64,000 bases of DNA from an uncultured Planctomycetales bacterium (GTDB lineage: Bacteria; Planctomycetota; Planctomycetia; Pirellulales; PNKZ01): the NCBI GenBank assembly GCA_963710365.1, contig CAVQAC010000019.1, forward strand, positions 552,969 through 616,968. The letters are read 5' to 3'. Position numbers and translations under genes: made by a program. The first letter of the stretch is position 1. Each line of letters begins with the position of its first letter. Below, in pieces: positions 1 to 15,427 of this stretch. The notes under the pieces were generated by a model that was given only the letters and a program-made list of their open reading frames with translations, made no database searches and was not told where the DNA came from.

Positions 1-236
1 TCTTTAGCCATCCTGTTGCGTCGCGCGCAACTGTCCGGCGCATCCTCAACGAACGGCGGCCGTCGCAGTTGTTTCGATGGCTTCGTAGAGCCGCGTCGAT
101 TCTGGCCGTTTGGGTGTGTTTACCCTATGCAAGCGATCGCCCGCCGCTAAAACGCTTGGTCCACACGCAGCGGATCGAGTAGATTCGTACGCATGGGATT
201 TGTTCGACAGGCGAACACAACAAATGGGGGCGGCGC

Positions 237-1522
237 GTGCGCTGGGGGTCGCGACTGCTGAAACCATTGGGCAAGGCTTTAGCCGCCGACGCCGACTTGG
301 AAGAGTTGCTCGGCGGAGTCAAAGATTGCCAGCTCAAAACGGCCAACGAGGCGCTGGCCGTTTGTGCGTTGTTGCGCACGTTTCCGCGGGCGACGGGCAG
401 CTACGGGCTTTTTCACTCGTCGCTGCGTGATGTAGCCGGCTTTTTCCAACAGGTCGAAAGCCAGGCGGCATTCGATGTCCTCAAGGAACTGGGCGTTCCC
501 GAGCTGTGCCGCATTTACCGATCGCTGGCTGCTTCCAAGGATGAGGACGTCCAAGGTGATCTGCTGTTCGTATTGAAGATCCTCACCTTCTACTGGCATG
601 ACGAGGGGACCAAATGTGTGATCGAGGCTGCACGTCGCGGCATCCGCTCGGATGGTTGGTTGTGGGAGGTGATCCTTCAGTCTTTCGACAAGGACCATGG
701 GCATTCACAATACGTCATGCACGCGCTCGCCGACCCGCTGCCGGAAGGTTTCATTGCGATTGCGCTCGTCGATGCAGCGAACAGGCTGGCTGACCAGGGA
801 GTTGCCTTTCCGCATCCGTTCGACAGCGCCGCGGGAACCGCTCGACTCAAGCAATGGCTGACCGGCGACAATCCAGATAAATACAGCTACGCGAATAGTG
901 CAACGCTCGCTCTGCCTTATCTGACACGGCAAGAGCGCGACGAACTACTGTCGATCGCCTGCGTGCATCCTAGTGCTCACGTGCAGATCGCTGCGGGCTG
1001 GGTAGGCGGCAAGCTCGGGCGGCCGGCCGGTATCGAACTATTGGCCCATTGGTGTCTCGACGTACGATATTCAACCCATGCCGCGAAGCTGTTGGCCGAG
1101 TTGCAGGCGCCGACGCGATACCTGCGCGAGCTCGCGAGCCAGAATTCGAGGCGATGGCCGAGATGTGCAACTGGCTTGCGCATCCCAATGAATTTTCCCG
1201 ACCTCCCGATGGCATCGAACTATTCGACCGACGAACGCTGTACTGGCCGCCCACCAACGATGCCCGAACCGTGTGGCTGTTCAAATACCGGTACGAGCCA
1301 ACGGGAGACGAGAAGGAGGACGTCGGGCTCGGCATGGTGGGTGGCTCGACAACCTTCGCCTTGTTCGGCGATACGAACCCCGACATGAAGCCTTTGGATG
1401 CCTACGCTCTGCACTGTTGTTTCGAACTCGATTTCAACGCGGACAAGCGTGCGCCCAAGAAACGATCGATTGCCGCGGGACTCAAGCTGCTGCGAAAGCA
1501 CAATCCCCAGCTAGCGGATTGA
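237..1522 (+). pseudogene. conserved hypothetical protein split over two frames (one frame break about 1100-1140)
   Basis: ORF 237-1388 (GTG start) reads as plausible protein to about ..THAAKLLAEL and then degenerates (QNSRRWPRCATGLRIPMNF). The overlapping ORF 1049-1522 becomes protein-like exactly there (EPEFEAMAEMCNWLAHPNEF...KLLRKHNPQLAD). No family recognised. Confidence 0.45.
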
Positions 1523-1544
1523 CGGCGCCCCCATTCACCCGAAC

Positions 1545-3409
1545 TCACGCCGAGTCGAGGATCTTCATGTTCGGGCAGATTTCCGCCAATTGCTGTTCCA
1601 TGTAGCGGATGATCTGGGCGCTGGTCTGCATCCGCAACACGCGTTGCAAGATCTGCTCGCTGTGCGCCACGGTCAAATGGCTCACTAGCTCTTTGATGAT
1701 CGGCACGAAGGCCGGGCTCATGCTGAAGCTGCGCAGCCCCATGCCGAACAGCAGCACGCACACCCGCGGGGCCGCGGCAATTTCGCCGCACAGCGTCACC
1801 GACTTGCCGGCCGCCCGGCTGTGCTTGATCACGGAATCGAGCACGTGAATTACCGCCGGGCTCAACGGCTCGCAAAGATGGCTGACCTTCGGGTTGTCGC
1901 GGTCGGCCGCCATCAGATACTGCACCAGATCGTTCGAGCCGATGGAAACGAAATCGGAAACGGTCAACAACGAGTCGATCGAAACGGCCGCCGCCGGCAC
2001 TTCGATCATCATGCCGATCGGCACTTCGGCAAACGGCTTGCCCTCGGTCTTGAGTTGCCGGGCTGCACGGCGTACCAGCCCGCGGACCTTGCGCATTTCC
2101 TCGAGCGTGGTGATCATCGGAAACATCAACCGCACGCTGTTGGGCTGTCCATCGTCGCTATGCGAGGCTCGCAGCACCGCGCGAATCTGCGTGACGAAGA
2201 ATGCCGGATGCTCGAACGACAGGCGGATTGAGCGCCAGCCCATGAAGGGATTGGCCTCGCGGCTATGGCCCAGATACGGAATCGTCTTGTCGCCGCCCAG
2301 ATCGAGCGTGCGAATCGTGATTCGCCGCCCTGGACTGGCGGCGATGATCGCGCGATACGTGTCGACCTGCTCTTCTTCGTCCGGAACATCGGGATGCGTG
2401 AGGAACAGGTATTCGGTGCGATACAGACCAACGCCCGTGGCGCCCATGCCGCACGGCCGCTCTGCGCGTCGCCAATGCGGCTGATGTTGGCCAGCAGTTC
2501 GACATGTTCGCCGTCGGCCGAGATCGCCGGCTGGTCGCGATTCTCGGCCAGGGCGTCTTTCAGATCGACGAACTCGCGTTGCAGCTTACGGTAGGCGGTG
2601 AGTGTTTCGTAGTCGGGATTCACCAGCACGTGCCCTTCCCGGCCGTCGACGACGACCGTGTCGCCGTTGCTGACGTCGTGCAGGATGCCCGGCACGCCGG
2701 AGACCGCCGGAATCGCGCGGCTGCGGGCGAGAATTGCGGCATGGCTGGTTCGGCCGCCGGCCTGGGTGACGATGCCCGCCACTTCGCGCTCGCCGAGCGT
2801 GATCACGTGCGACGGCACGAGCTCGTTGGCCACGAGAATGATCGGCCCGGGCATTGCGTCGGAATAGGGTTGAAGCACCTGCGACAGGTGGCCGCTGAGA
2901 CGGATGATCACGTCGCGGACGTCGGCCAGCCGCTCTCTGAGGTATTCGTCCTGGGTGCGACTGAACAGCTCGGTGTATTGGGCCAGCAATCGCTGCAGGG
3001 CTGTCTGGGCCGTCTGTCGCGAGTCGACGATCCAGGTTCGAACCTTGGCCGTGAATGCCGGATCCTTCAGGATCGATTCGTGGACGTGAAAGATGGCGGC
3101 TTGTTCATGGCCGACTTGCGATTCGACCTTGGCTGCCAGCGCCCGTAGATCGGCCGCGGTCTTTTCGCGGGCCTGATCGTACTGAGTCAACTCACCCAAA
3201 ATCTGCTGATCGTCGAGCGGGCGTTTCTCGTCGCCTATGAAGATCTCGTGAATGCAATAGGCCTGGCCAATGGCCACGCCAGGCGACACGGCCAAACCAC
3301 GGTGTAAGACGAGCGGCTGACTCTTGGCCGATCGGCGTTTGTCGCTCGCCGCCGGCGCAGCGGCCGAGGGGCGTTCGGCCGGCGACGGTGATTTATCGGT
3401 AAAAGGCAT
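1545..3409 (-). pseudogene. ptsI: phosphoenolpyruvate-protein phosphotransferase (PTS enzyme I), one frame break about 2449
   Basis: The N-terminal piece (frame of ORF 2126-3409) carries the phosphohistidine region GIVTQAGGRTSHAAILARSRAIPAV. The C-terminal piece (ORF 1545-2447) carries the PEP-utilising barrel motifs GVGLYRTEYLF, IGSNDLVQY and LCGEIA. The join ..IGDAQSGRAA / MGATGVGLYRTE needs a 1-nt correction. Confidence 0.9.
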
Positions 3410-3489
3410 GCCTTGTTCCGGCCCACGAGCAGGCTATCACGGCGTGTCGCACTCTGCGTGCCGCGCCTCCGTTGTACCCTGCCGCCCGA

Positions 3490-4878
3490 CTAGGCTGCAA
3501 TTCCCTGCTCGGGCCGGGCCGGATCGCCTGCCAATGCCAATGCCGGAACCACCGACCGAGAAGCCGTTAACGCCAACAGCGGCTCCGGCTCGCCGGCCGA
3601 AGGAGCGATGTCCGCAGTACGCGGCAGAAGCAAAAGGGCCGCAAAACGGGCCACGGTCGACACCGCAAACAGCGTCAGATAAACCGCCGGCGTTTTGCCG
3701 AAGTACATCAGCGTGGCTCCCCCGGCAAGCGAACCGACGACCGTCGCTGCGGCATTGGCCAGATTAAAAATCGTTAATACACTGGTGCGTTCGTCGTCGG
3801 CCACCGCTTCGAGGAACAATAACGCAGTGCTCAATTCATAGGCCGCCCAGAGCACACCGACCGTGAGCTGCAAGGCAATCAGATAGGCAAAAGAATTCGA
3901 AATCAGCCACGCCGCCGACAACGGCGCAATTCCCACGCCCCCCAGCCATAGCAGCCGCTTGGTGCCGAATCGTCGGGCAAAGCGGCCCAGCGCCGGCAGG
4001 GCGATGATCCGCGATACATAGGCCGCAGCCACCAGAACGACATACTGCCAGTAGGGAAACTTCAACTGGTAGAGCATATAAGGATTGAAATAAGGCCCCG
4101 CTATTTGCACGGCCGATTGCACGGCCAGCAAATAGACCAGCACGCCCGCGCCGCTGGGGCTCGAGAAACGCTCTCGCATCTCGCGCCAGGAGAGCATCCG
4201 ATGCCGCAAGGCCGGCCCCACCGGTTCGCTCTGCCTGCTCAGAAAACAAACGCTGATCATCCGGCCGGTCGTGGCGACGAAGAACAACAGCGCAAAGGCT
4301 TGCAGCGTGATGCCCCAAGCTGAGCCCCAGTGCAACCAGATGCCGCCTCCGACGAACCCGGCCAAGAATCCTACCTGGCTGAATTTCGTCCGCCTGGCGA
4401 AATATGCGGCGCGTACGCGGGTCGGCACGATCGTGCCCATCCAGGTGTTCCAAGCCGGGCCGGTCGACAAGCCGGCGCCCCAGTACAGGGCGGCAGCGCC
4501 GAAGACAAGCAGCATGGGTACGTAACCGGTAAGCGCGGCGATCAGCAACGGCACATAGACCAAACCTTGCAGTGCTGCGCAAGGCAGAATCCAGCGCCGA
4601 AACGAACCGCATCGCTGCAAGGCCCATGGAGCCGCCAACTGCAGTATCGATCCGACCAGCAACGGAATCGTAGCCACCAGCCCCGAGGCGATTTCGCCCA
4701 TCCCCGCCGCCAACGCAAACGCCGGCAGATAGGTCTCGCCGATGCCGACCATGACGCTGAACGAGGCCCCGTCCCCCACGCCGGCCCCCAGATTGCGACG
4801 CAGGACCGGCGAGCGCAATCGCCGGCCAGGCATGGGAGGCACGTGGGTACGGTCTAATCTACGAGAAATCTCTGCCAT
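3490..4878 (-). CDS. MFS-type transporter
   Basis: ORF 3490-5127 trimmed to the ATG at 4878 (MAEISRRL..), because the longer 5' extension runs into the divergent gene at 5087. It is about 460 aa with roughly 12 hydrophobic segments and basic inter-helix loops (e.g. GRFARRFGTKR). Confidence 0.7.
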   Translation of the reverse strand: MAEISRRLDRTHVPPMPGRRLRSPVLRRNLGAGVGDGASFSVMVGIGETYLPAFALAAGMGEIASGLVATIPLLVGSILQLAAPWALQRCGSFRRWILPCAALQGLVYVPLLIAALTGYVPMLLVFGAAALYWGAGLSTGPAWNTWMGTIVPTRVRAAYFARRTKFSQVGFLAGFVGGGIWLHWGSAWGITLQAFALLFFVATTGRMISVCFLSRQSEPVGPALRHRMLSWREMRERFSSPSGAGVLVYLLAVQSAVQIAGPYFNPYMLYQLKFPYWQYVVLVAAAYVSRIIALPALGRFARRFGTKRLLWLGGVGIAPLSAAWLISNSFAYLIALQLTVGVLWAAYELSTALLFLEAVADDERTSVLTIFNLANAAATVVGSLAGGATLMYFGKTPAVYLTLFAVSTVARFAALLLLPRTADIAPSAGEPEPLLALTASRSVVPALALAGDPARPEQGIAA

Positions 4879-6300: not shown

Positions 6301-7678
6301 TGCTTGGCTTCTTCGGGCGCAACCGGCCGGAGCCGCTGCATCTCGACTTTGAAGTCGCCCAGACTGGGCCAGCGCAAGCGGCGATCGAGATCGACTTCGG
6401 CCACGGCGATCGTTCCCCACACGTCGGCCTGGGCCAGCGGCTGACCGTCGTGGCCGTAGATGGCCGAGATCATCCACTTGGCCGCGGCGTCGGTGTAGGT
6501 GCTGGAAATCACGTACACGTGGTTCTCACAAGCCCGCGCGCGCCCAATAGCGGATTGCAGCCCGCCACGGGCCAGGCAATCACTTCAGCGCCGTGGAACG
6601 TCAACTGCCGGGCCACCTCGGGATAGAAGCCATCGTAGCAGATCATCATTCCAACTTTGCCGAAACGAGCCTCGAAGACAGGATACTCGTGCCCTGGCTG
6701 CAAGCCCGATTCCACTTCGCCGCGCGGCAACGTGACCTTGCGGTACTTGCCCACCAACGCACCGTCGGGGCCGATCAGGGCTGCCGTGTTGTAGATCAGG
6801 TGCCCGTCGCGCTCGGTCAAACCCGCCACGATGTACATATCGTACTTCTTGGCCAACCCGCCGAAATAACGCGTCGAGGGCCCCGGTATGGGTTCGGCAA
6901 CATCGACCAGCTCCTTGCCGGTTCCGTACCAGGTGAGCGACTCGGGCAGAACGATCAGATCGACCTTCTGTTTGGCGGCTTCTTGAATGAATGGCTCGAA
7001 CAGGCGGCAATTTCCTTCGGGCGTCTTGTCGGCACTCTTGGGCCGCAGATGCACGGTGGCTAGCCGAACGTGGCGGCCGGCCGGAGCCGATGTCTCCTGC
7101 AGCGAAAGGCCCGAGTACTCGACACGTCCGGGCGTCCAGATCAGATAAAGCTCGATGATCGCCCGCGCGGCCTTGGTGGGAACGTGATACGTGTCGGACA
7201 GTTCGGTCCAACCACGTGAGTCGGCCGTTTTGTCGGTGGGATACTCGGGCTCGGCTCGCGGTTTAGGCGAAGCGTTATAATGGACTGTGGGGCCTGGCTC
7301 GTCATGATTGACGGCGCGGCCTTTCTCGTCGCGCCACTCGATGCGCACGTAAGCCGAACGGCGCGGCACTTCGACTCCTGTGGTCTTGCGCAGCACCGAG
7401 AAGCGATAGCTCTTGCCGCCCGTCACCGGCACCGTCGCCTGCCACCAACCGTGAGCCCCTTCCAGACCGGCGGCATCGAGCACCAGGCTGCCTTGCCCAT
7501 CGACGCCGCCCGGGACGAAGCTGGCCTTTGGTCGGATTTCATCGCGCGGAGCCTCGGCCGTCCACTGATAACCGCGATAGTTCACCGGCTCGCCGGCGAG
7601 CGCCGACCCCGTCACACATGAAGATAGAGCCGCGATGATGGCGACAATCGCGGATCGGGAACGCGGGGATGTATTCAT
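6297..7678 (-). pseudogene. secreted carbon-nitrogen hydrolase (nitrilase-superfamily) protein with N-terminal extra domain, one frame break about 6520-6535
   Basis: Signal-like N-terminus MNTSPRSRSAIVAIIAALSS. The C-N hydrolase core has DLIVLPES (Glu), GKYRKVTLP (Lys) and MMICYDGFYPE (Cys). The C-terminal continuation [13 protein letters not shown]...[10 protein letters not shown] lies in the frame of ORF 6297-6518. Confidence 0.75.
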
Positions 7679-7818
7679 GGCGAATCTCCGAGGAAGGCGC
7701 AAGCGGGCGGATTACCCGCGTCATTCTACCGTGCCTCGAATGGCAACACAAAGTTACTGACCAAAACAGCCACCTCATTCGATCTGATGAGACCCGAGGC
7801 GCCACGCGACGAACATTG

Positions 7819-8265
7819 TTAAATCGGCCGGATGCGTCTGACCTGCGGCTCACAAGCGGACACCACGTCGATGACATGGTTCAGGCAATTGATTCCCCAG
7901 TGCCGCAGCAGTCCAGGATACTCGTCACTTGCGAAGGTCGCCCGCGCCACGTAATCAAGGAAGTGGGATTTCTTGTACAGGCACAACAACCGACCTTCCC
8001 AGGCCTCTGCGTCATCAAGCGTACAAAACGATTCGTTCCGCACGGAGTAGCAGACGTACGTCTCCCAGACCAACACAAAAAGCCGGCAGCTTTCGTCGGA
8101 CTCGATACTACGGCAGCCAGGGATTACGTTCCCAGGCGACACTTCGAAATTCTCTGGCGGACCTTCAGATTTTGCCTCCTCAATTTCGAGTCGTAGCGAA
8201 TTATCTCTCGGCTCGGTGAGCTCGCGCAAATACAAGTACTTACAGTCGTCGATCTCAGCAGACAT
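7819..8265 (-). CDS. hypothetical small cytoplasmic protein (immunity-protein-like; speculative)
   Basis: ORF 7819-8394 trimmed to the ATG at 8265 (MSAEIDDCKYLYL..), giving 148 aa with no signal or TM segment. GC is lower than in the flanks, and it is divergent from the next gene. No family recognised. Confidence 0.4.
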   Translation of the reverse strand: MSAEIDDCKYLYLRELTEPRDNSLRLEIEEAKSEGPPENFEVSPGNVIPGCRSIESDESCRLFVLVWETYVCYSVRNESFCTLDDAEAWEGRLLCLYKKSHFLDYVARATFASDEYPGLLRHWGINCLNHVIDVVSACEPQVRRIRPI

Positions 8266-8460
8266 ACGTCGGACCCAAAAAATCAATGGAAATACTGCAT
8301 CACGACATCTTACCACTTCGCAGTTCATTACGTGAGGACGGTCATGCGTTCCGAGCCGCGGACGCCCGGCAACGTGATCTCCCAGTACTTGCACCCGCTC
8401 AGGGCATCAACCACAATAACGCGCGGCCCCGCCCCAACTCCTGCCAATGCGATTTGCCCT

Positions 8461-9436
8461 ATGAACCGTTTATGCTTTTGGTTCGTGCTGATTGCCTGTT
8501 TCTGCGATTCGTTCTCGACGTTTTCCCAAACGCCGACGCGTAAGCCGACGGTGTGGATGTGCCCACCGGGATTTGACGGCGGCAAGCATTTTGCCGAGCT
8601 GTTCGAAAAGCCCGACGAGTGGCAGCAAACCCGTAAGGCGATCGACGTGCTGGGCTATGCCGACCTGAACTTCAAGAAGCACTTCAGCGACGAACAGTTG
8701 CAGGCCTGGCTTCCCAAATTGAACGAGTGGGGCATCAAGCTCGGGCTCGAAGTCGGCGCCATCAAGGCTTGGGGCCAGAACCGGTGAAAAAGCGTTCCAG
8801 GCCGAGCAGCCAATCTGGCAGCGGATCGAGCGGCTCGGGGGCAAGATTCATTCGATCGCCATGGATGAGCCGCTGTGTTGCTGCCGCAAGGAGATCCACC
8901 AGCCCGACGACTATGCCGTCGCGCGAAACGGCCAATTACATCGCCCTGGTGCGAAAGCATTATCCGCAGATGCTGATCGGCGAGATCGAGCCGTATCCAT
9001 TTCTTTCGCTTGGACGAGCACATCGCCTGGATCGAGGCGTTGGAAAAACGCCTGGCCGAATTGCAAGTTCGCGGCTTGGACTTTTATCGGCTGGACGTGA
9101 ATTGGGTGGAATTCAACGCGCAAAGCCGCGGCATCGTGGCGCGAAGTCCGCAAGCTGGAGCAGTACTGCCGCCGGCGGAAGCTGCCGTTCAGTCTGATCT
9201 ATTGGGCCTCGGGCTATCCGGCGCTCGAGCGTCGCGGGCTGGCCGACGATGCGGCCTCGTACGTTTCGATCATGCAGCAAGGCTACGATTACGCGCTGGT
9301 CGACGGCTCGCCGGATCAGATCGTGGTGCAAAGTTGGATCAATGCGCCAAGCCGCAGCGTGCCGGAAACGGTCGACTTCACTTTCGCTCGCACGGTGCTC
9401 GACTTTACGCAGCGTTTCGCGCGGCCGAAAAAATAG
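8461..9436 (+). pseudogene. secreted hypothetical protein, at least 4 frame breaks (about 8780, 8925, 9005, 9130)
   Basis: Signal peptide MNRLCFWFVLIACFCDSFSTFSQ. Protein-like sequence continues by hopping frames: ..LEVGAIKAWGQ / TGEKAFQAEQPIWQRIERLGGKIHSIAMDEPL..DDYAV / ETANYIALVRKHYPQMLIGEIEPYPFLSL / DEHIAWIEALEKRLAELQVRGLDFYRLDVNWVEFNAQSRG / WREVRKLEQYCRRRKLPFSLIYWASGYPALERRGL...TQRFARPKK, with a stop at 9434-9436. Confidence 0.5.
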
Positions 9437-10212
9437 CGCTGGCCGAAGCCGCGTGGGGTATTCGCCCTACTCATTCGTGATCGGGTGTTGAGGTCGGGTT
9501 ATAATCGCGTTGGGTTGCACTTCGCTGTGAATGAGGCCGCGATGACGACGCACGAGAATTGCCCGCGATAACCGAGGTGATTGCCTACGGCAGCGCTGAG
9601 TATACCGTCGAGCTGGTCATTGACCTCCAAGAGCTCTTGTGCAGACAGTTCCGCCTGTGGCGAATATTGCTCGAATCCCACGCCGTTGACGACTTGATCC
9701 TCATTTATCCCGATTGTGTACGTAATAACGACGCCAGTCCCGGCGAACCTTTGGCCAACACGCTGGCGAGGGTCAACGCGCACGCACAGGCCAGCAAGAG
9801 ACTCTTCAGCCGATATTCGATCATCACCAATCCTGACTACTACCAGTCAACTGAGCCTCCGCGGTTTTGCGAGGCCAACGTCGCTTACAACGCGGAGACC
9901 GCCGAATGCGATCCAGGTTGGCCAAGATTCAATACGGTCGCCGAACCACCTGAGCTGACGACCGACGAATACCTTGAGATCGAGAACGATCTAGTCCCCG
10001 CGTTGGAACGTTATGGGCATGTCGTTACAAAAAGCGACCTCTCCGATACGTCGAAAGAGAAGCTCCATGCCCTCTGGTTGCTCCGCACCTCCTGGATGCA
10101 ATGGGACCGCACAAGGATTCTGGTCAAATACGGAAACCAAGAGTTTTCAGACGGCCTGATTCGAGATATTCAGTCGGCACTGCAAAACTGGCCGCTGTGG
10201 CGCGTGGCGCTA

Positions 10213-11388
10213 TAGTGTCCTGAGTTATAAATTCGCTGAAATAGTCTTGCGCCTGGCCGCGGGCCGTGTAGGCTTTCTCGAAAGGAGAAAGCCGATGGCT
10301 ATGGGACGACCGAAAGCGGAGTTGGTTTTGAGCGACGAGGAGCGGCAAGCGCTGGAACGCTGGGCGCGGCGGCCGAAGAGCAGTCAGCAACTGGCGCTGA
10401 GGTCGCGAATTGTATTGAGTTGTGGTGACGGTCGCACGAACCAGCAAGTGGCCAAAGAGTTGCGGATCAGCATGCCGACCGTGGGCAAGTGGCGAGCTCG
10501 CTTCGTGGCGCGGCGTTTGGACGGGTTGTTGGATGAACCACGGCCGGGCACGCCGCGCACGATTAGCGACGAACAGGTTGAAAAAGTGATCACCAAAACG
10601 TTGGAAACGAAGCCGCAGCACGCGACCCACTGGAGCACTCGCGGCATGGCGAAGGCCACGGGCCTGAGCCAGACGGCGATCTCCCGGATTTGGCGAGCTT
10701 TCAACCTTCAACCGCACCGCACCGAAACGTTCAAGCTGTCGACCGACCCGCAATTCATCGAAAAAGTCCGCGATGTCGTCGGCTTGTACATGAATCCGCC
10801 CGACCGGGCCATCGTCTTGTGCGTCGACGAAAAGAGCCAAGTGCAGGCTTTGGATCGCAGCCAACCGCTGCTGCCGATGAGTTCTGGGCAAGTGGAACGG
10901 CATACGCACGACTACGTTCGCTATGGAACTACCTCGTTGTTTGCGGCTTTGGAAGTTGCGACCGGAAAGGTGATCGGTAACTGTCAACAACAGCATCGGC
11001 ATCAGGAGTTCATCAAGTTCCTGGAACTGATCGACGAGCAGATTCCGGAAGTGCCTGGGATTGAAATTCACTTGGTCATGGACAACTACGCCACGCACAA
11101 AACGCCCAAGGTCAAACGTTGGTTCGCTCGGCGTCCGCGTTATCATGTGCATTTCATTCCCACGAGTTCATCGTGGCTGAATCAGGTCGAGCGATTCTTT
11201 GCTGAAATCACGGAGAAACGCATTCGTCGCGGCGCGTTCCGTAGCGTGCAAGCCCTTCGCAAGGCGATCGAAGGATACCTGGACCACCACAACCGCAAAG
11301 CACGGCCGTTCGTCTGGACCGCCGACGCTGATTTGATTCTCGCCCGCGTTAAAAAGGTTTGTAAACGGATTAACAACTCAGGACACTA
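10213..11388 (+). mobile_element. IS630-family insertion sequence (boundaries +/-2 nt because of TA duplication)
   Basis: Terminal inverted repeats TAGTGTCCTGAGTT (10213-10226) and AACTCAGGACACTA (11375-11388). Removing the element and one TA restores ..GCG CTA GAC GCT.. (A L D A), i.e. a CTAG target. A single intact DDE transposase ORF fills the element. Confidence 0.9.
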
Positions 11389-11389
11389 G
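10295..11389 (+). CDS. IS630-family transposase
   Basis: AGGAG 8 nt before the ATG at 10295 (MAMGRPKAEL..). It has an N-terminal HTH region, then LCVDEKSQVQAL, HLVMDNYATHKT and SSSWLNQVERFF (DDE triad context). The stop codon lies in the right terminal repeat. No frame break in 1.1 kb. Confidence 0.9.
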   Translation: MAMGRPKAELVLSDEERQALERWARRPKSSQQLALRSRIVLSCGDGRTNQQVAKELRISMPTVGKWRARFVARRLDGLLDEPRPGTPRTISDEQVEKVITKTLETKPQHATHWSTRGMAKATGLSQTAISRIWRAFNLQPHRTETFKLSTDPQFIEKVRDVVGLYMNPPDRAIVLCVDEKSQVQALDRSQPLLPMSSGQVERHTHDYVRYGTTSLFAALEVATGKVIGNCQQQHRHQEFIKFLELIDEQIPEVPGIEIHLVMDNYATHKTPKVKRWFARRPRYHVHFIPTSSSWLNQVERFFAEITEKRIRRGAFRSVQALRKAIEGYLDHHNRKARPFVWTADADLILARVKKVCKRINNSGH

Positions 11390-11497
11390 ACGCTGAAGAC
11401 ATACGAGACGTGCGGTTCGTTTATCCGGACTTCATTCGCTGAGTCGCAAACGCTGACGGATCCTAGTGACCCGAGAACACCGAGACGGGTGATGGAT

Positions 11498-12461
11498 ATG
11501 GCGAGCCATGGAAACTGCCCGCGGTTCCCTTCCCTAGCGGAATGTGCATTACGCTACAACGTTTCCGAATCGGAGCGAGAATCCGACGAATTAATTCACC
11601 AGAGCGAGCCCGATCTGCCGCCGATTAGCGACGTCGAGATTTCGCTGATTTATCGGCTGCCACAACCGGTCATCGACAAACATAACCGTGCGCACGGTTT
11701 CACGGATCAAGGGGCCGATTATTACTACCTGGTTGGCGACCGTTGGGAAGATGACCGGACGTTTAACGTCACGGCATACGGCAATGCCGAATACACCGCC
11801 GAGCTTGTGCTTGATCTCCAACTCCTGCTGCGCCGAAAACTGTCGCTTTGGCGAATCGCACTCTTGGCCAATGTGCTCGATGACCGTATTTACGTCTATC
11901 CGGAGTGCGTGCGGAACAACGACGCGACGTTAGACGAGCCCCTTGCGGTGACCCTGCGGCGAGTGAACGCCCATGAACGGGCATGGCGACAACTAGTTAA
12001 TCGCTATTCAGTCGCCGAACAACCTGGATATAGTCAGCGGACCTCAGTGCCCCCGCGGCTTTGTGAAACAAAAGTCGCATACAATGCTAATGAGGCCGAG
12101 TGTGCTCCTGCGTGGCCTCGATTCAACACCGTTTCCGACCCGCCGGAACTTACCACCGTGGAATATCTCGATCTCGACGGTGAGCTAGTCCGCTCGCTTG
12201 AGCAATACGGGCCGGTCGTTTGCAAGAATCACTTATCGGATACATCCAAGCAAAGGCTCAATGCGCATCTGGCTGGTCCGAACGACAGTTATGCAGTGGG
12301 ATCGGACGCGAATCCTGATCAGGTATGGCGAGGAACGATCCACCCCGGAGTTGATTCGCGAGATCCAAGGCGCCCTGCAATGCTGGCCGCTGTGGCGCGT
12401 GGCCTTGGACGCCGAGGATGAACGCGACGTGAGGTTCGTTTATCCGGAATTCATTCGGTAG
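11498..12461 (+). pseudogene. paralogue B of the tandem two-domain family, one frame break about 12265
   Basis: MASHGNCPRFPSLAECALRYNVSESERE... is colinear with paralogue C up to ..SDTSKQRLNA. The rest (LWLVRTTVMQWDRTRILIRYGEERSTPELIREIQGALQCWPLWRVALDAEDERDVRFVYPEFIR) lies in the frame of ORF 12198-12461. Confidence 0.8.
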
Positions 12462-12513
12462 AATGGCCCGTGGGAAGTAGCCGAGACTTTACTTCACCGA
12501 AACCGAGCCCTGC

Positions 12514-13473
12514 ATGCCAACTCACGACCATTGCCCGCGATATCCATCATTGGCCCAGTGCGGCCTACGTTACAATCTCTCTGATTCAGAACGGGAAAAC
12601 GACGAGGAACTGCATCAGACCGAGCCCAACGTCCCGCCGATCGGTGATAAAGAGTACGGCCGGATCACGAGGGCCATTACCCCGGTGATCGAAAAACACA
12701 ATCAGCAGTATGGTTATACGGACGAAGGAACGGACTACTACTACCTGATGGGCGACCAGTTTCGCGGCGACAGAACGATCGAGGTCACAGTCTACGGGAA
12801 GGCCGCCTACACGCGTGAGTTTGTCAGCGCTCTACAGTTGCTTCTGCGCCGCACTCTCCGACTCTGGCGAATACTGCTGGTAGCGAATGTTCGTGACGAC
12901 CTGATCCTTGTTTATCCGGATACGGTGCGAAATAACGATGCCGTTCCCGGGGAGTCATTGGCGGATACGCTGGTGAGAGTGAACGCCCATTCACAGGCGT
13001 GGCAGCGACTTTTTCACCGCTACCTGGCAAGCGCTGCACCGGGGTACCGACAGCCCATGGAGCCACCGCGATTGTGCGAAATGAAGGTTGCCTACAATGC
13101 CGCATCGGAAGAAGTCGATTCCAACTTGCCAAGGTTCAACACGATTGCAAATCCACCGGAACTTACGACGGACGAGTATCTCGACATGGAGAAAGACCTG
13201 GTTCCTGTACTCGAACGGTATGGGCCAGTTGTTACAAAGAGCGACGTCTCAGACCTGACGAAAGAGAAACTAAACTCGCTATGGTTAATTCGCACAACCG
13301 CTATGCAATGGGACCGCACGCGCATCCTAGTTCGTTATGGCACCCAACAATTCACCCCGGAGCTGATTAGCGGGATTCAAGGCGTCCTGCAACGCTGGCC
13401 GCTATGGCGCGTGGCTTTGGACGCCGAGGATGAGCATGAAGCGCGGTTCATCTATCCAAACATGATTCACTAG
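12514..13473 (+). CDS. paralogue C (intact, 319 aa) of the tandem two-domain family; function unknown
   Basis: Full-length ORF with ATG start. It contains an internal duplication: GDRTIEVTVYGKAAYTREFVSALQLLLRRTLRLWRILL..LILVYPDTV versus WDRTRILVRYGTQQFTPELISGIQGVLQRWPLWRVAL..ARFIYPNMI. The N-terminal motif H-x2-CPR[YF]PSLA-x-C is conserved across the paralogues. Confidence 0.8.
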   Translation: MPTHDHCPRYPSLAQCGLRYNLSDSERENDEELHQTEPNVPPIGDKEYGRITRAITPVIEKHNQQYGYTDEGTDYYYLMGDQFRGDRTIEVTVYGKAAYTREFVSALQLLLRRTLRLWRILLVANVRDDLILVYPDTVRNNDAVPGESLADTLVRVNAHSQAWQRLFHRYLASAAPGYRQPMEPPRLCEMKVAYNAASEEVDSNLPRFNTIANPPELTTDEYLDMEKDLVPVLERYGPVVTKSDVSDLTKEKLNSLWLIRTTAMQWDRTRILVRYGTQQFTPELISGIQGVLQRWPLWRVALDAEDEHEARFIYPNMIH

Positions 13474-13624
13474 CCGAGCGCTTGTATTGCGGCATGAATT
13501 TGCGACTACGCGCCTTCTTTCTCGCGCTTTGTACAATATTTTGATTGCAATCAGGCCAGCGACTCGCGTAAGCTTCATGTGAAACGAGGTATCAGCCGAG
13601 CCCAAAGTCTCAGGTATCCCAAGA

Positions 13625-13670
13625 GCCCGTTGTCGGAGCCAGTCAGCGCCTCCGCCAGCGGGCTTTTTTT
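13625..13670 (+). terminator. intrinsic terminator after the paralogue array
   Basis: GCCCG..CGGAG-loop-CTCCG..CGGGC stem followed by T7 (13664-13670), about 150 nt after the stop of paralogue C. Confidence 0.6.
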
Positions 13671-13729
13671 ATTTGGTCATTACAGATTGGCATCGCGTAG
13701 CGCCAACCGCGAGTCACCAGAGAATTACC

Positions 13730-14383
13730 ATGGCAGAAGGCCATCATTGGGTGCCGACATCTGTTCGTAAGAAGCTTGAAACCTTCCTGTCAACTGATGC
13801 GCAGAAAACCTTCAAACGATCCGTCACGGGAGATCCTTACGGAGTCACTCACGATGCGACATCCCAAAATGGCGTCTCGCACAATGAATATAACCAGCGA
13901 GTTATGAGCAAGTTAAGCGAGAAGATTGATCGGCTGCGAAATGAGGGCGCTCTGGTTAAGGGAAAGTTAACGGGGCCCCAGGCCGAGGCGTTCGTCGCTG
14001 GAATCAAGAAGAATGGTCTCGGCGATAAACGAATTCAGCTCTTCAACCAGGGAGTCCTCAAGACACTCAAGTTAATTGCCCTCGGTGGCATTATGATGAA
14101 GGGCCTGGAACAAGCAGCGAGAGCTCAGAATCTAGGCAATGCGGTCATAAGCAATAACCACTATAAAAATGCGGTAGTCGCGTTGCAGAGGGGCGATTGG
14201 CGACGGGCAAATGCGGAAATCCAAGGTGGATATCCAAGCGGTAAGAACCTGGTCGATGACCTGATAAATGCAGGCTATTACAGGGACGGATTGACCCTGC
14301 TTGGTCTTTGGCAGCGGCGGGAGAAGGACTTCATCAAGATCGAAAACGGCCAGAGCGTGGCAGGCGTGCCCGACGATTTCTGA
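13730..14383 (+). CDS. stand-alone HNH/EndoVII-fold nuclease-like protein of the GHH/AHH type (putative), with a C-terminal helical domain
   Basis: MAEGHHWVPTSV.. gives an HH-x2-P signature as in ColE9-type and AHH/GHH toxin domains. It is followed by ..YGVTHDATSQNGVSHNEYNQRVMSKL (H...N-G-x-x-H-x-x-Y). This is the lowest GC in the window (two hand-counted 60-nt samples gave 43% and 47%). It has its own upstream AT-rich region after a terminator. Confidence 0.4.
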   Translation: MAEGHHWVPTSVRKKLETFLSTDAQKTFKRSVTGDPYGVTHDATSQNGVSHNEYNQRVMSKLSEKIDRLRNEGALVKGKLTGPQAEAFVAGIKKNGLGDKRIQLFNQGVLKTLKLIALGGIMMKGLEQAARAQNLGNAVISNNHYKNAVVALQRGDWRRANAEIQGGYPSGKNLVDDLINAGYYRDGLTLLGLWQRREKDFIKIENGQSVAGVPDDF

Positions 14384-14546
14384 TCCCAGGCGCGAACCAA
14401 GCCCCGGAGCCGGGCGACGAAAATGCGAACTGGGGAGAGGCGACCACGCACGCGGGCCGCGATTCAAGAGGTATTGTCAGACCGATGCGATCCCGGCGCG
14501 CGCTCGCGCCGGAATCGATGGTCTTCGTTGGCCTCGGCGCCGGCTG

Positions 14547-14575
14547 CCGTTGGGCCTTCAAGAGTGGCCCAACGG
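14547..14575. terminator. 10-bp perfect hairpin between convergent genes (GHH-like gene and fliA)
   Basis: CCGTTGGGCC-ttcaagagt-GGCCCAACGG. There is no U-tract on either strand, so the terminator role is tentative. Confidence 0.35.
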
Positions 14576-14592
14576 TCCGCTGAATTCGGACA

Positions 14593-15427
14593 TCAACCGC
14601 CGAATTCGGGGCGACGCCGTTCGAGCTGCAATTGCAGCCGCTGCACGATCGAGCTGTGCATCTGGCTGACGCGGCTCTCGGAGAGATCGAGCGTGGCGCC
14701 GATCTCCTTCATCGTCAACTCTTCATAGTAGTAGAGGATGATGATCAGCCGCTCGTTGCGATTCAATCCCTTGGTCACCAGCCGCATCAGATCTGTTTTC
14801 TGGATGCGGCGGGTGGGATCCTCGCCCTTCTTGTCTTCCAGGATGTCGATCTCGCGGACATCCTTGTAGCTGTCCGTCTCGTACCACTTCTTGTTCAGGC
14901 TGATGAGCCCCACGGCGTTGGCCTCGAGCATCATCTTTTCCAGCTCGGGCACGCTGATCTGCAACTGCGTGGAGAGCTCGGCTTCCGTCGGGAGCCCGGC
15001 CCAGCCTGGCTTCCAATGTCTTGAGAGCTTCGTTGAGCTTGCTGGCCTTGGAGCGCACCAGGCGCGGCACCCAGTCCATGGTGCGCAGCTCGTCGAGCAT
15101 GGCCCCGCGGATACGCGGCACGCAATAGGTCTCGAACTTTACGCCGCGACCCAGATCGAAAGCGTCGATCGCATCCATCAGGCCGAACACGCCGGCCGAA
15201 ACCAGGTCGTCCAGTTCGACGCCCTCGGGGAGCCGTGACCAGATGCGCTCGCCGTTGTATTTGACAAGCGGCAGATACATCTCCACCAGCTTGTTGCGCA
15301 GTTCCTGGTTGGTGATATCGACCTTGAAGGCTTCCCAGATCTGCGTCACTTCTTCCGAGGCGACGGTGGTTGCCATGCACTCCTCCATGCTTGCACGCGG
15401 CGACTTCTTTTCTTGATCGAGATCCAT
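14593..15427 (-). pseudogene. fliA: flagellar RNA polymerase sigma factor (sigma-28 / FliA), one frame break at about 14990
   Basis: N-terminal frame (ORF 14723-15427): region 2 LVEMYLPLVKYNGERIW, DLVSAGVFGLMDAIDAFD, FETYCVPRIRGAMLDELR. C-terminal frame (ORF 14593-14964): regions 3-4 ..LNRNERLIIILYYYEELTMKEIGATLDLSESRVSQMHS. The join LGRAP / TEAELSTQLQISVPELE sits at a GGG run (14990-14992). Confidence 0.9.

Follow-up and report, generated by a model that had tools for sequence, protein, structure and literature searches.

A partly decayed array of two-domain putative immunity proteins beside a free-standing AHH-like toxin-tip gene in a planctomycete

We analysed a 64-kb stretch of DNA (64,000 nucleotides; hereafter the window) from contig CAVQAC010000019.1 of an uncultured Planctomycetales bacterium, in which three tandem paralogues of a putative immunity protein family, copies A, B and C, lie upstream of a short gene for a protein, P0076, that is related to the C-terminal toxin tips of RHS proteins (Table 1). 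The GC content of the surrounding islet (7800-14400) is 52-58%, against 60-62% in its flanks. A sequence-only reading of this DNA had proposed a tandem triplication of an unrecognised family; three same-strand paralogues were indeed recovered with a profile hidden Markov model (HMM) of the family, but the full N-terminal motif ascribed to all three is present only in B and C, as A keeps no more of it than MTTHENCPR. That reading did not include the pseudogene status of two of the three copies, the insertion sequence (IS) inside the region, or the neighbouring gene that explains the family. Below, P-numbers denote proteins and L-numbers the other loci with which the window was compared.

Table 1. 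Features of the islet, in window coordinates (ORF, open reading frame; aa, amino acids; nt, nucleotides)
Feature	Position	Strand	Basis
Tandem immunity-type paralogues A, B and C	9542-13473	+	each matched by the family HMM
Copy A (pseudogene), N-terminal remnant, ATG and MTTHENCPR	9542..9568	+	three-frame translation; A/B/C DNA alignment
Copy A (pseudogene), body in another frame, equivalent to aa 90-302 of copy C	9559..10212	+	tblastn; family HMM E 1e-109
IS630-family insertion sequence, 1176 bp, inside copy A	10213..11388	+	NF033545; terminal inverted repeats; TA target
Copy A tail DAEDIRDVRFVYPDFIR and stop, last 17 codons, displaced by IS630	11389..11442	+	translation
Copy B (pseudogene or sequencing error), full length, 1-nt insertion at ~12266	11498..12461	+	tblastn; DNA alignment
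Copy C, intact, 319 aa, P0001, proposed immunity protein for the adjoining toxin	12514..13473	+	ORF; hhalign self-repeat
Conserved non-coding element, ~130 nt, between copy C and the toxin gene	13541..13670	+	conservation across loci
Free-standing toxin-tip gene, 217 aa, P0076, start MAEGHHWVP	13730..14383	+	homology to RHS/YD-shell C-terminal tips

Copy C is the only intact member of the array, and a full-length protein can be encoded by just one of the three copies. In copy A, approximately 78 codons following MTTHENCPR have been deleted relative to copies B and C, with a change of frame that brings a stop codon into frame. The body of copy A, represented in the public record by the 212-aa fragment P0013, ends in ...WPLWRVAL, which is the insertion point of the IS630 element. 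Copy B carries its single-nucleotide insertion in the context ..CAATGCG-C-ATCTGG.., which leaves the last 64 codons out of frame, and tblastn accordingly recovered it as two pieces in different frames (11498-12265 and 12267-12458). Repair of the frame yields a 320-aa protein, while the public record holds a 309-aa read-through product (P0010). The three copies share 61-63% DNA identity, and the protein of copy A is 80% identical to a metagenomic protein, P0002, versus only ~65-66% to copy C; the three are old paralogues and do not stem from a recent local amplification.

The element within copy A encodes a transposase (ORF 10247-11389) that matched the NCBIfam model NF033545 (transpos_IS630; E 4e-83, 279 bits against a cutoff of 100) as well as Pfam DDE_3 and HTH_32, and its ends are 14-bp terminal inverted repeats (TAGTGTCCTGAGTT / AACTCAGGACACTA) flanked by TA. 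All the hallmarks of the IS630 family were thus found: a DDE transposase model match, inverted repeats and a TA target. Excision of the element precisely recovers the copy A frame W-R-V-A-L-D-A-E-D. The element is present as a single copy in the window, and the transposase stop codon TAG (11387-11389) takes its final base from the flanking host DNA. On a metagenomic contig syntenic with the window (L004, with fliA, flhG and flhF alongside), a lone family copy (1250-3599), with no toxin gene nearby, is split by an IS3-family element, which is an independent IS insertion into the orthologous gene of the same family.

Each protein of the array is a tandem duplication of one domain of ~130-170 aa. 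BLASTP aligned aa 36-138 of copy C with aa 210-318 at 25% identity (E 3e-9), a profile comparison of the two halves by hhalign returned a probability of 98.1% (E 8.6e-14; 128 columns, aa 11-139 versus 185-319), and the local alignment score of the self-repeat lay 18 standard deviations above that of 500 shuffles. The two copies of the domain occupy approximately aa 1-172 and 173-319. Since the N-terminal motif PSLAQCGLRYN reappears in the second unit as PPRLCEMKVAYN (the pattern PSxxEC..RYN becoming PPRLCE.KV.YN), the whole unit was duplicated, and in a 358-aa relative, P0015, the second unit is complete, VRN.DA helix included. The sequence-only reading had recognised the duplication and listed conserved core motifs that are all present, but it placed the repeat in modules of ~55 aa where the aligned unit is ~130 residues long, and the 19 identities over 56 positions that it counted for those modules fell to 17 of 56 columns in a global alignment.

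We found the family to be rare. A word-seeded search of 5.8 billion clusters returned 14 close relatives, of which three are fragments from the window itself, and an exhaustive HMM search of 1.84 billion representatives returned 65 proteins at E <= 1e-3. Most of the 65 are ~300 aa long, and their match is confined to the first half of the profile. Each half of copy C aligns with the N-terminal domain of these distant proteins (hhalign E 6.5e-32 and 3.9e-21), whose C-terminal domain is unrelated to either half. Residues P11, P41, E47, D86, R87, T88, Q108, W118, R119, Y134 and P135 are conserved across the 65 members; the repeat domain, of alpha/beta type, carries the signature PSxxE..YN, DRT, Q, LWR, YP. 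Approximately 8 of the 65 (P0021, P0023, P0027, P0030, P0035, P0049, P0056 and P0066) begin with a hydrophobic extension of 35-60 aa, lipobox-like in some; most of these have an internal Met 2-4 residues ahead of the PS motif, for which reason the extensions are probably mis-called starts; otherwise they would mark truly exported forms, an unexpected property in a nuclease inhibitor.

No library that we searched names this family. Copy C had no Pfam match at E <= 1, no Pfam family was matched consistently by the 65 members, and neither NCBIfam nor PADLOC had a match for the family when copy C and its neighbours were scanned, in keeping with the earlier statement that it belongs to no recognised one. 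There was likewise no significant match to the catalogued immunity families (Imm1-74, SUKH/SMI1_KNR4, SuFu, CdiI, Imm-ank, HEAT and LRR), no match with E < 0.2 in a profile search of PDB sequences, no relative in two scans of the GTDB representative genomes, and no paper on the family in a search of the literature. A match to a housekeeping family and a repeat that dissolves on profile-profile self-alignment had been named as outcomes that would speak against the sequence-only reading; no such match was found, and the repeat holds.

The same reading had seen in the N-terminus (H-x2-C-x8-C) a possible metal-binding feature of the family. This did not survive comparison with the wider family. 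The motif offers three candidate ligands only, and the His and both Cys are conserved just in the ~11 close homologues that retain the N-terminus. Other residues take their place in P0015 (...YPSFAEWQWRYN) and P0017 (...YPSLAEYQGRYN), as well as in 43 distant members, where the consensus is PSxxExxGxYN, and hhalign found no counterparts to them in the second repeat of the same protein. The family is best read as a putative polymorphic-toxin immunity protein, not as a metalloprotein.

An AlphaFold2 (AF2) model of copy C built on the 65-sequence alignment had a mean pLDDT of 76.6, rising to ~90 over aa 11-160, and each of its two units is formed by a helix, two strands, a helix, three strands and a helix. 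Foldseek comparison of two AF2 models with the PDB gave no match with E < 0.05. Both models returned the same insignificant matches to Pol-beta-type nucleotidyltransferase folds (NF45/NF90 DZF, CCA-adding enzyme, poly(A) polymerase, CD-NTase, and the MntA and HI0073 antitoxins). We did not accept a nucleotidyltransferase fold for the domain, as the matches all have E > 0.05 and a probability <= 0.47 and the catalytic carboxylate triad is not conserved; at most they may be a hint of a degenerate nucleotidyltransferase-like fold, which we treat as a lead. The recurrence of these matches in both models, together with the His and Cys conserved in one narrow clade, is what might be said for a quite different view, in which the family acts on its own, as an enzyme or a metal-binding regulator, and stands beside a toxin-like gene by coincidental synteny. 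The missing triad, the poor fold scores and the loss of the His/Cys ligands outside the narrow clade all count against this view, as does the gene neighbourhood described below, and we regard it as extremely improbable.

The product of the neighbouring gene, P0076, matched the RHS tips of other loci by BLASTP (E 1.6e-7, 1.2e-8 and 6.6e-6), and a search with a profile of the tips returned 22 proteins, several of them named 'RHS repeat-associated' and one from a metagenome-assembled genome of Pirellulaceae. Against Pfam, P0076 scored 14.8 bits (E 0.03) with the AHH family PF14412, under the gathering threshold of 22.3 bits. This is the only Pfam family that the tips matched repeatedly (8 of 22, best E 0.0029), every time below threshold. 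In an alignment of eight tips, GHH is present in seven and is THY in L003, and H6, P9, H41, H51, Y54 and N55 are invariant. From these sub-threshold matches P0076 may be described as an AHH-like HNH/EndoVII (His-Me-finger) domain followed by a helical C-terminal region, with a presumed nuclease activity. The only match in a profile search of PDB sequences with the toxin, to entry 2w3y (17.6 bits), was discarded as weak. The toxin homologue of L003 (6924-7595, identical in L018) has T-H in place of H-H (QKDTHYVP), which may weaken its catalysis; apart from this it is intact, and so is the immunity gene with which it is paired.

The pairing of family member and tip was found well beyond the window. 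Homologues of P0076 (38-41% identity) are encoded directly ahead of close family members in L001/L002, L003/L018 and L005, in chromosomal contexts unlike that of the window and with the gene order opposite to the window's. P0019 stands directly downstream of an RHS protein in L009 (RHS_repeat E 6.6e-111), and P0018 directly downstream of a TEN_YD-shell protein in L010, an NCBI assembly; P0023 overlaps the upstream tip gene by 4 nt in L013; and a family member of L016 (HMM E 8.7e-61) follows a non-RHS toxin whose tip matched the toxin-tip profile at E 2.5e-44. All four pairs are same-strand, and all four upstream proteins end in a domain opening GHHW[VIN]P, which in L009, L010 and L013 directly follows the RHS ...DPxGL boundary. 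The tip varies independently of the N-terminus to which it is joined, being carried by RHS/YD proteins in L009, L010 and L015 (TEN_YD-shell again in the last) and by a non-RHS protein in L016. Three of the loci, L010-L012, are polymorphic-toxin arrays, with PT-HINT cassettes, a Pput2613 deaminase with Imm10, RNase_A_bac with CdiI_2, and a SUKH (SMI1_KNR4) gene. Altogether, adjacency of family and tip recurs in at least six architectures and genomic contexts, which counts against coincidental synteny.

The slot directly downstream of the tip also proved interchangeable. In L015 the gene after a related tip encodes a HEAT-repeat protein, and in L014 it encodes an LRR protein; both are listed immunity types (PMC3482391), indicating that the position after the tip is an interchangeable immunity slot. 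The toxin of L006/L007 survives only as a 36-aa remnant and that of L011/L012 only as its last 174 aa, and in each case the family gene is intact. The L011/L012 remnant forms part of a chimeric ORF (L011 5042-5941, L012 2839-3738) in which a WD40 beta-propeller N-terminus is fused to the 174-aa GHH-type toxin end; that end has 96% identity to the L010 tip and lacks the nuclease-like N-terminal half, and the ORF lies directly upstream of P0018. Two conserved small secreted proteins, both without a Pfam match and absent from the window, are encoded directly downstream of the pair in L001 (11204-12288), L003 (9015-10222) and L005 (3542-4758), one of them extremely Gly/Tyr-rich and ending in ...GGYGGCYYW.

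It is this genomic context, the slot directly downstream of RHS/YD-shell toxin tips, that identifies the family as a probable immunity protein. The tight linkage to the tip, and the conserved polar residues of the domain, would also suit an accessory factor (a chaperone, adaptor or activator) that helps the tip to fold or to be loaded and does not inhibit it. Known adaptors, however, are usually encoded upstream of their effector, whereas the family gene is downstream of the tip in 7 of 8 paired loci; nor would such a factor persist beside the degraded toxins of L006/L007 and L011/L012; and tandem paralogous arrays mark immunity genes, not chaperones (PMC3482391). We consider an accessory role very unlikely.

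A second possibility concerns the toxin's use more than the family's. If the tip were never exported, the pair could be an intracellular toxin-antitoxin, addiction or defence module, with the two-domain protein as an antitoxin that serves, for instance, islet maintenance or abortive infection; the family would still be the neutraliser, but the biology would not be interbacterial competition. Stand-alone tip genes of ~217-230 aa, starting exactly at the GHH motif and lacking an RHS core fragment, a signal peptide or PT-HINT, are present in at least five lineages and have kept this form through divergence to 40-60% identity, and we found no RHS gene in the window, all of which speaks for such a module. 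On the other hand, no PADLOC defence system was matched, the supposed antitoxin is large, no DNA-binding domain could be recognised in it, and the tip has clear RHS-attached relatives. Moreover, the loss of the toxin with retention of the immunity gene in L006/L007 and the decay of copies in the window are both typical of immunity genes. On balance we hold an intracellular module to be unlikely.

Between copy C and the toxin gene lies a conserved element that combines a promoter-like -35/-10 pair with two AGGTATC..GAGCC boxes at a spacing of ~27 nt; a GC hairpin of 14-17 bp, with compensatory changes in its stem, runs into seven T. The element also precedes the toxin gene in L001 (~9040-9192), L003 (~6790-6904) and L005 (~1500-1618). 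An Rfam search of 9000-15000 gave no match. We considered whether the element might be a leader of the riboswitch type or an RNA antitoxin resembling type III, and rejected this as the main interpretation, because the element recurs in L017 (~820-1000, minus strand) and L019 (~100-300, minus strand) with no toxin gene or long downstream ORF; it is probably an independent, unannotated small-RNA gene of this group of bacteria that is not part of the toxin-immunity system. A more adventurous scenario would join several of these threads. An RHS tip may have been domesticated in a planctomycete-like clade, a free-standing, non-exported AHH-like nuclease and its duplicated two-domain inhibitor making a new toxin-antitoxin or defence module out of an interbacterial weapon; the inhibitor domain would be a new fold, possibly a catalytically dead nucleotidyltransferase-like one, and the adjacent small RNA might help to control the module. 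We offer this as speculation and rate it as improbable.

At the upstream edge of the same low-GC islet, a 191-aa ORF on the minus strand (7819-8394) had no family match, and between 8400 and 9480 on the plus strand a plausible coding sequence spans three frames, which suggests a further frameshifted pseudogene; a Pfam scan of the ORF fragments in this interval gave no match.

Together, these observations lead us to conclude that positions 9542-14383 likely constitute a small islet of the polymorphic-toxin type, low in GC and partly decayed, comprising a new immunity family and its cognate free-standing AHH-like toxin. By extension from known polymorphic-toxin systems, the immunity protein would bind the toxin domain stoichiometrically in the cytoplasm of the producer, and binding would block the presumed nuclease activity and so shield the cell from toxin made by itself or by its neighbours. 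The additional paralogues may once have covered variant toxins; at present copy C alone would serve, A having been lost through deletion and IS630 insertion and B through a frameshift.

Several observations weigh against this conclusion. The immunity assignment is drawn from gene neighbourhood, and the family members of L004 and L008 have neither a toxin nor a toxin remnant nearby. In the window itself the immunity array precedes the toxin, the reverse of the usual toxin-immunity order, and co-transcription of the two is unlikely because the terminator-bearing element separates them. P0076 has no delivery domain, with no RHS gene in the window to supply one, and its presumptive AHH assignment falls below the Pfam threshold, as it does for every member of the tip group. 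Conservation of polar residues as strong as that of D86, R87, T88, Q108, W118 and R119 is seldom seen in immunity proteins and might point to an enzymatic function. Finally, the hydrophobic N-terminal extensions, unless they are start-codon artefacts, fit poorly with a cytoplasmic nuclease inhibitor.

The locus adds one immunity family and one AHH-like tip clade to the catalogue of polymorphic toxins, both absent from Pfam, NCBIfam, PADLOC and the PDB and both from a poorly studied phylum, Planctomycetota, to which a Pirellulaceae source name and a DUF1598 neighbour also point. With no detectable structural relative of the immunity domain, a solved toxin-immunity complex would reveal a new inhibitor fold. 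The locus also captures ongoing turnover of immunity genes by deletion, IS insertion and frameshift. It is otherwise a bacterial warfare locus of an ordinary sort, distinguished by its new family, and introduces no new biological principle.

Tandem arrays of paralogous immunity genes have been described as 'homogeneous polyimmunity loci', and immunity proteins of several domains as 'polyimmunity proteins' (Zhang, de Souza, Anantharaman, Iyer and Aravind, 2012; PMC3482391). By analogy, A-B-C would be a homogeneous polyimmunity locus and each of its products a two-domain polyimmunity protein: the window array is tandem, same-strand and separated by short spacers, and two putative immunity domains lie in one polypeptide. 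Other traits shared with polymorphic-toxin immunity genes (PMC3482391) are the position directly after an RHS tip among other toxin and immunity cassettes, the orphan copies beside degraded toxins, the patchy phyletic spread and the island-like GC content. Unlike polyimmunity loci, which are usually toxin-free, the window array adjoins a toxin gene, and two of its three copies are dead. The domain also differs from the catalogued immunity families in matching none of them, and it matches no solved structure.

The tip, for its part, is closest to Tox-AHH (PF14412; neighbouring clades Tox-SHH and Tox-GHH2), for which the published signature is [AG]HH with conserved N, H, H and Y (PMC3482391, Table 1). 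It resembles that family in its s-[AG]-H-H start followed by conserved H, H, Y and N, in the location at the C-terminus of RHS proteins and in the repeated, if sub-threshold, Pfam matches. Its residue order, GHH..H..HxxYN, is close to the signature order [AG]HH, N, H, H, Y but not identical with it. It further departs from Tox-AHH in carrying a conserved helical C-terminal region of ~110 aa (FN and GD..A motifs) and in being free-standing in the window clade.

Lastly, the window locus resembles orphan rhs/cdi cassettes in that tip and immunity gene are detached from a full-length delivery protein. Such cassettes normally retain a conserved piece of the core for recombination and have no start codon of their own. 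In the window, by contrast, the 64 kb contain no main rhs gene, a core fragment is absent, and the tip opens with its own ATG at the domain boundary, a form that is conserved across several lineages.

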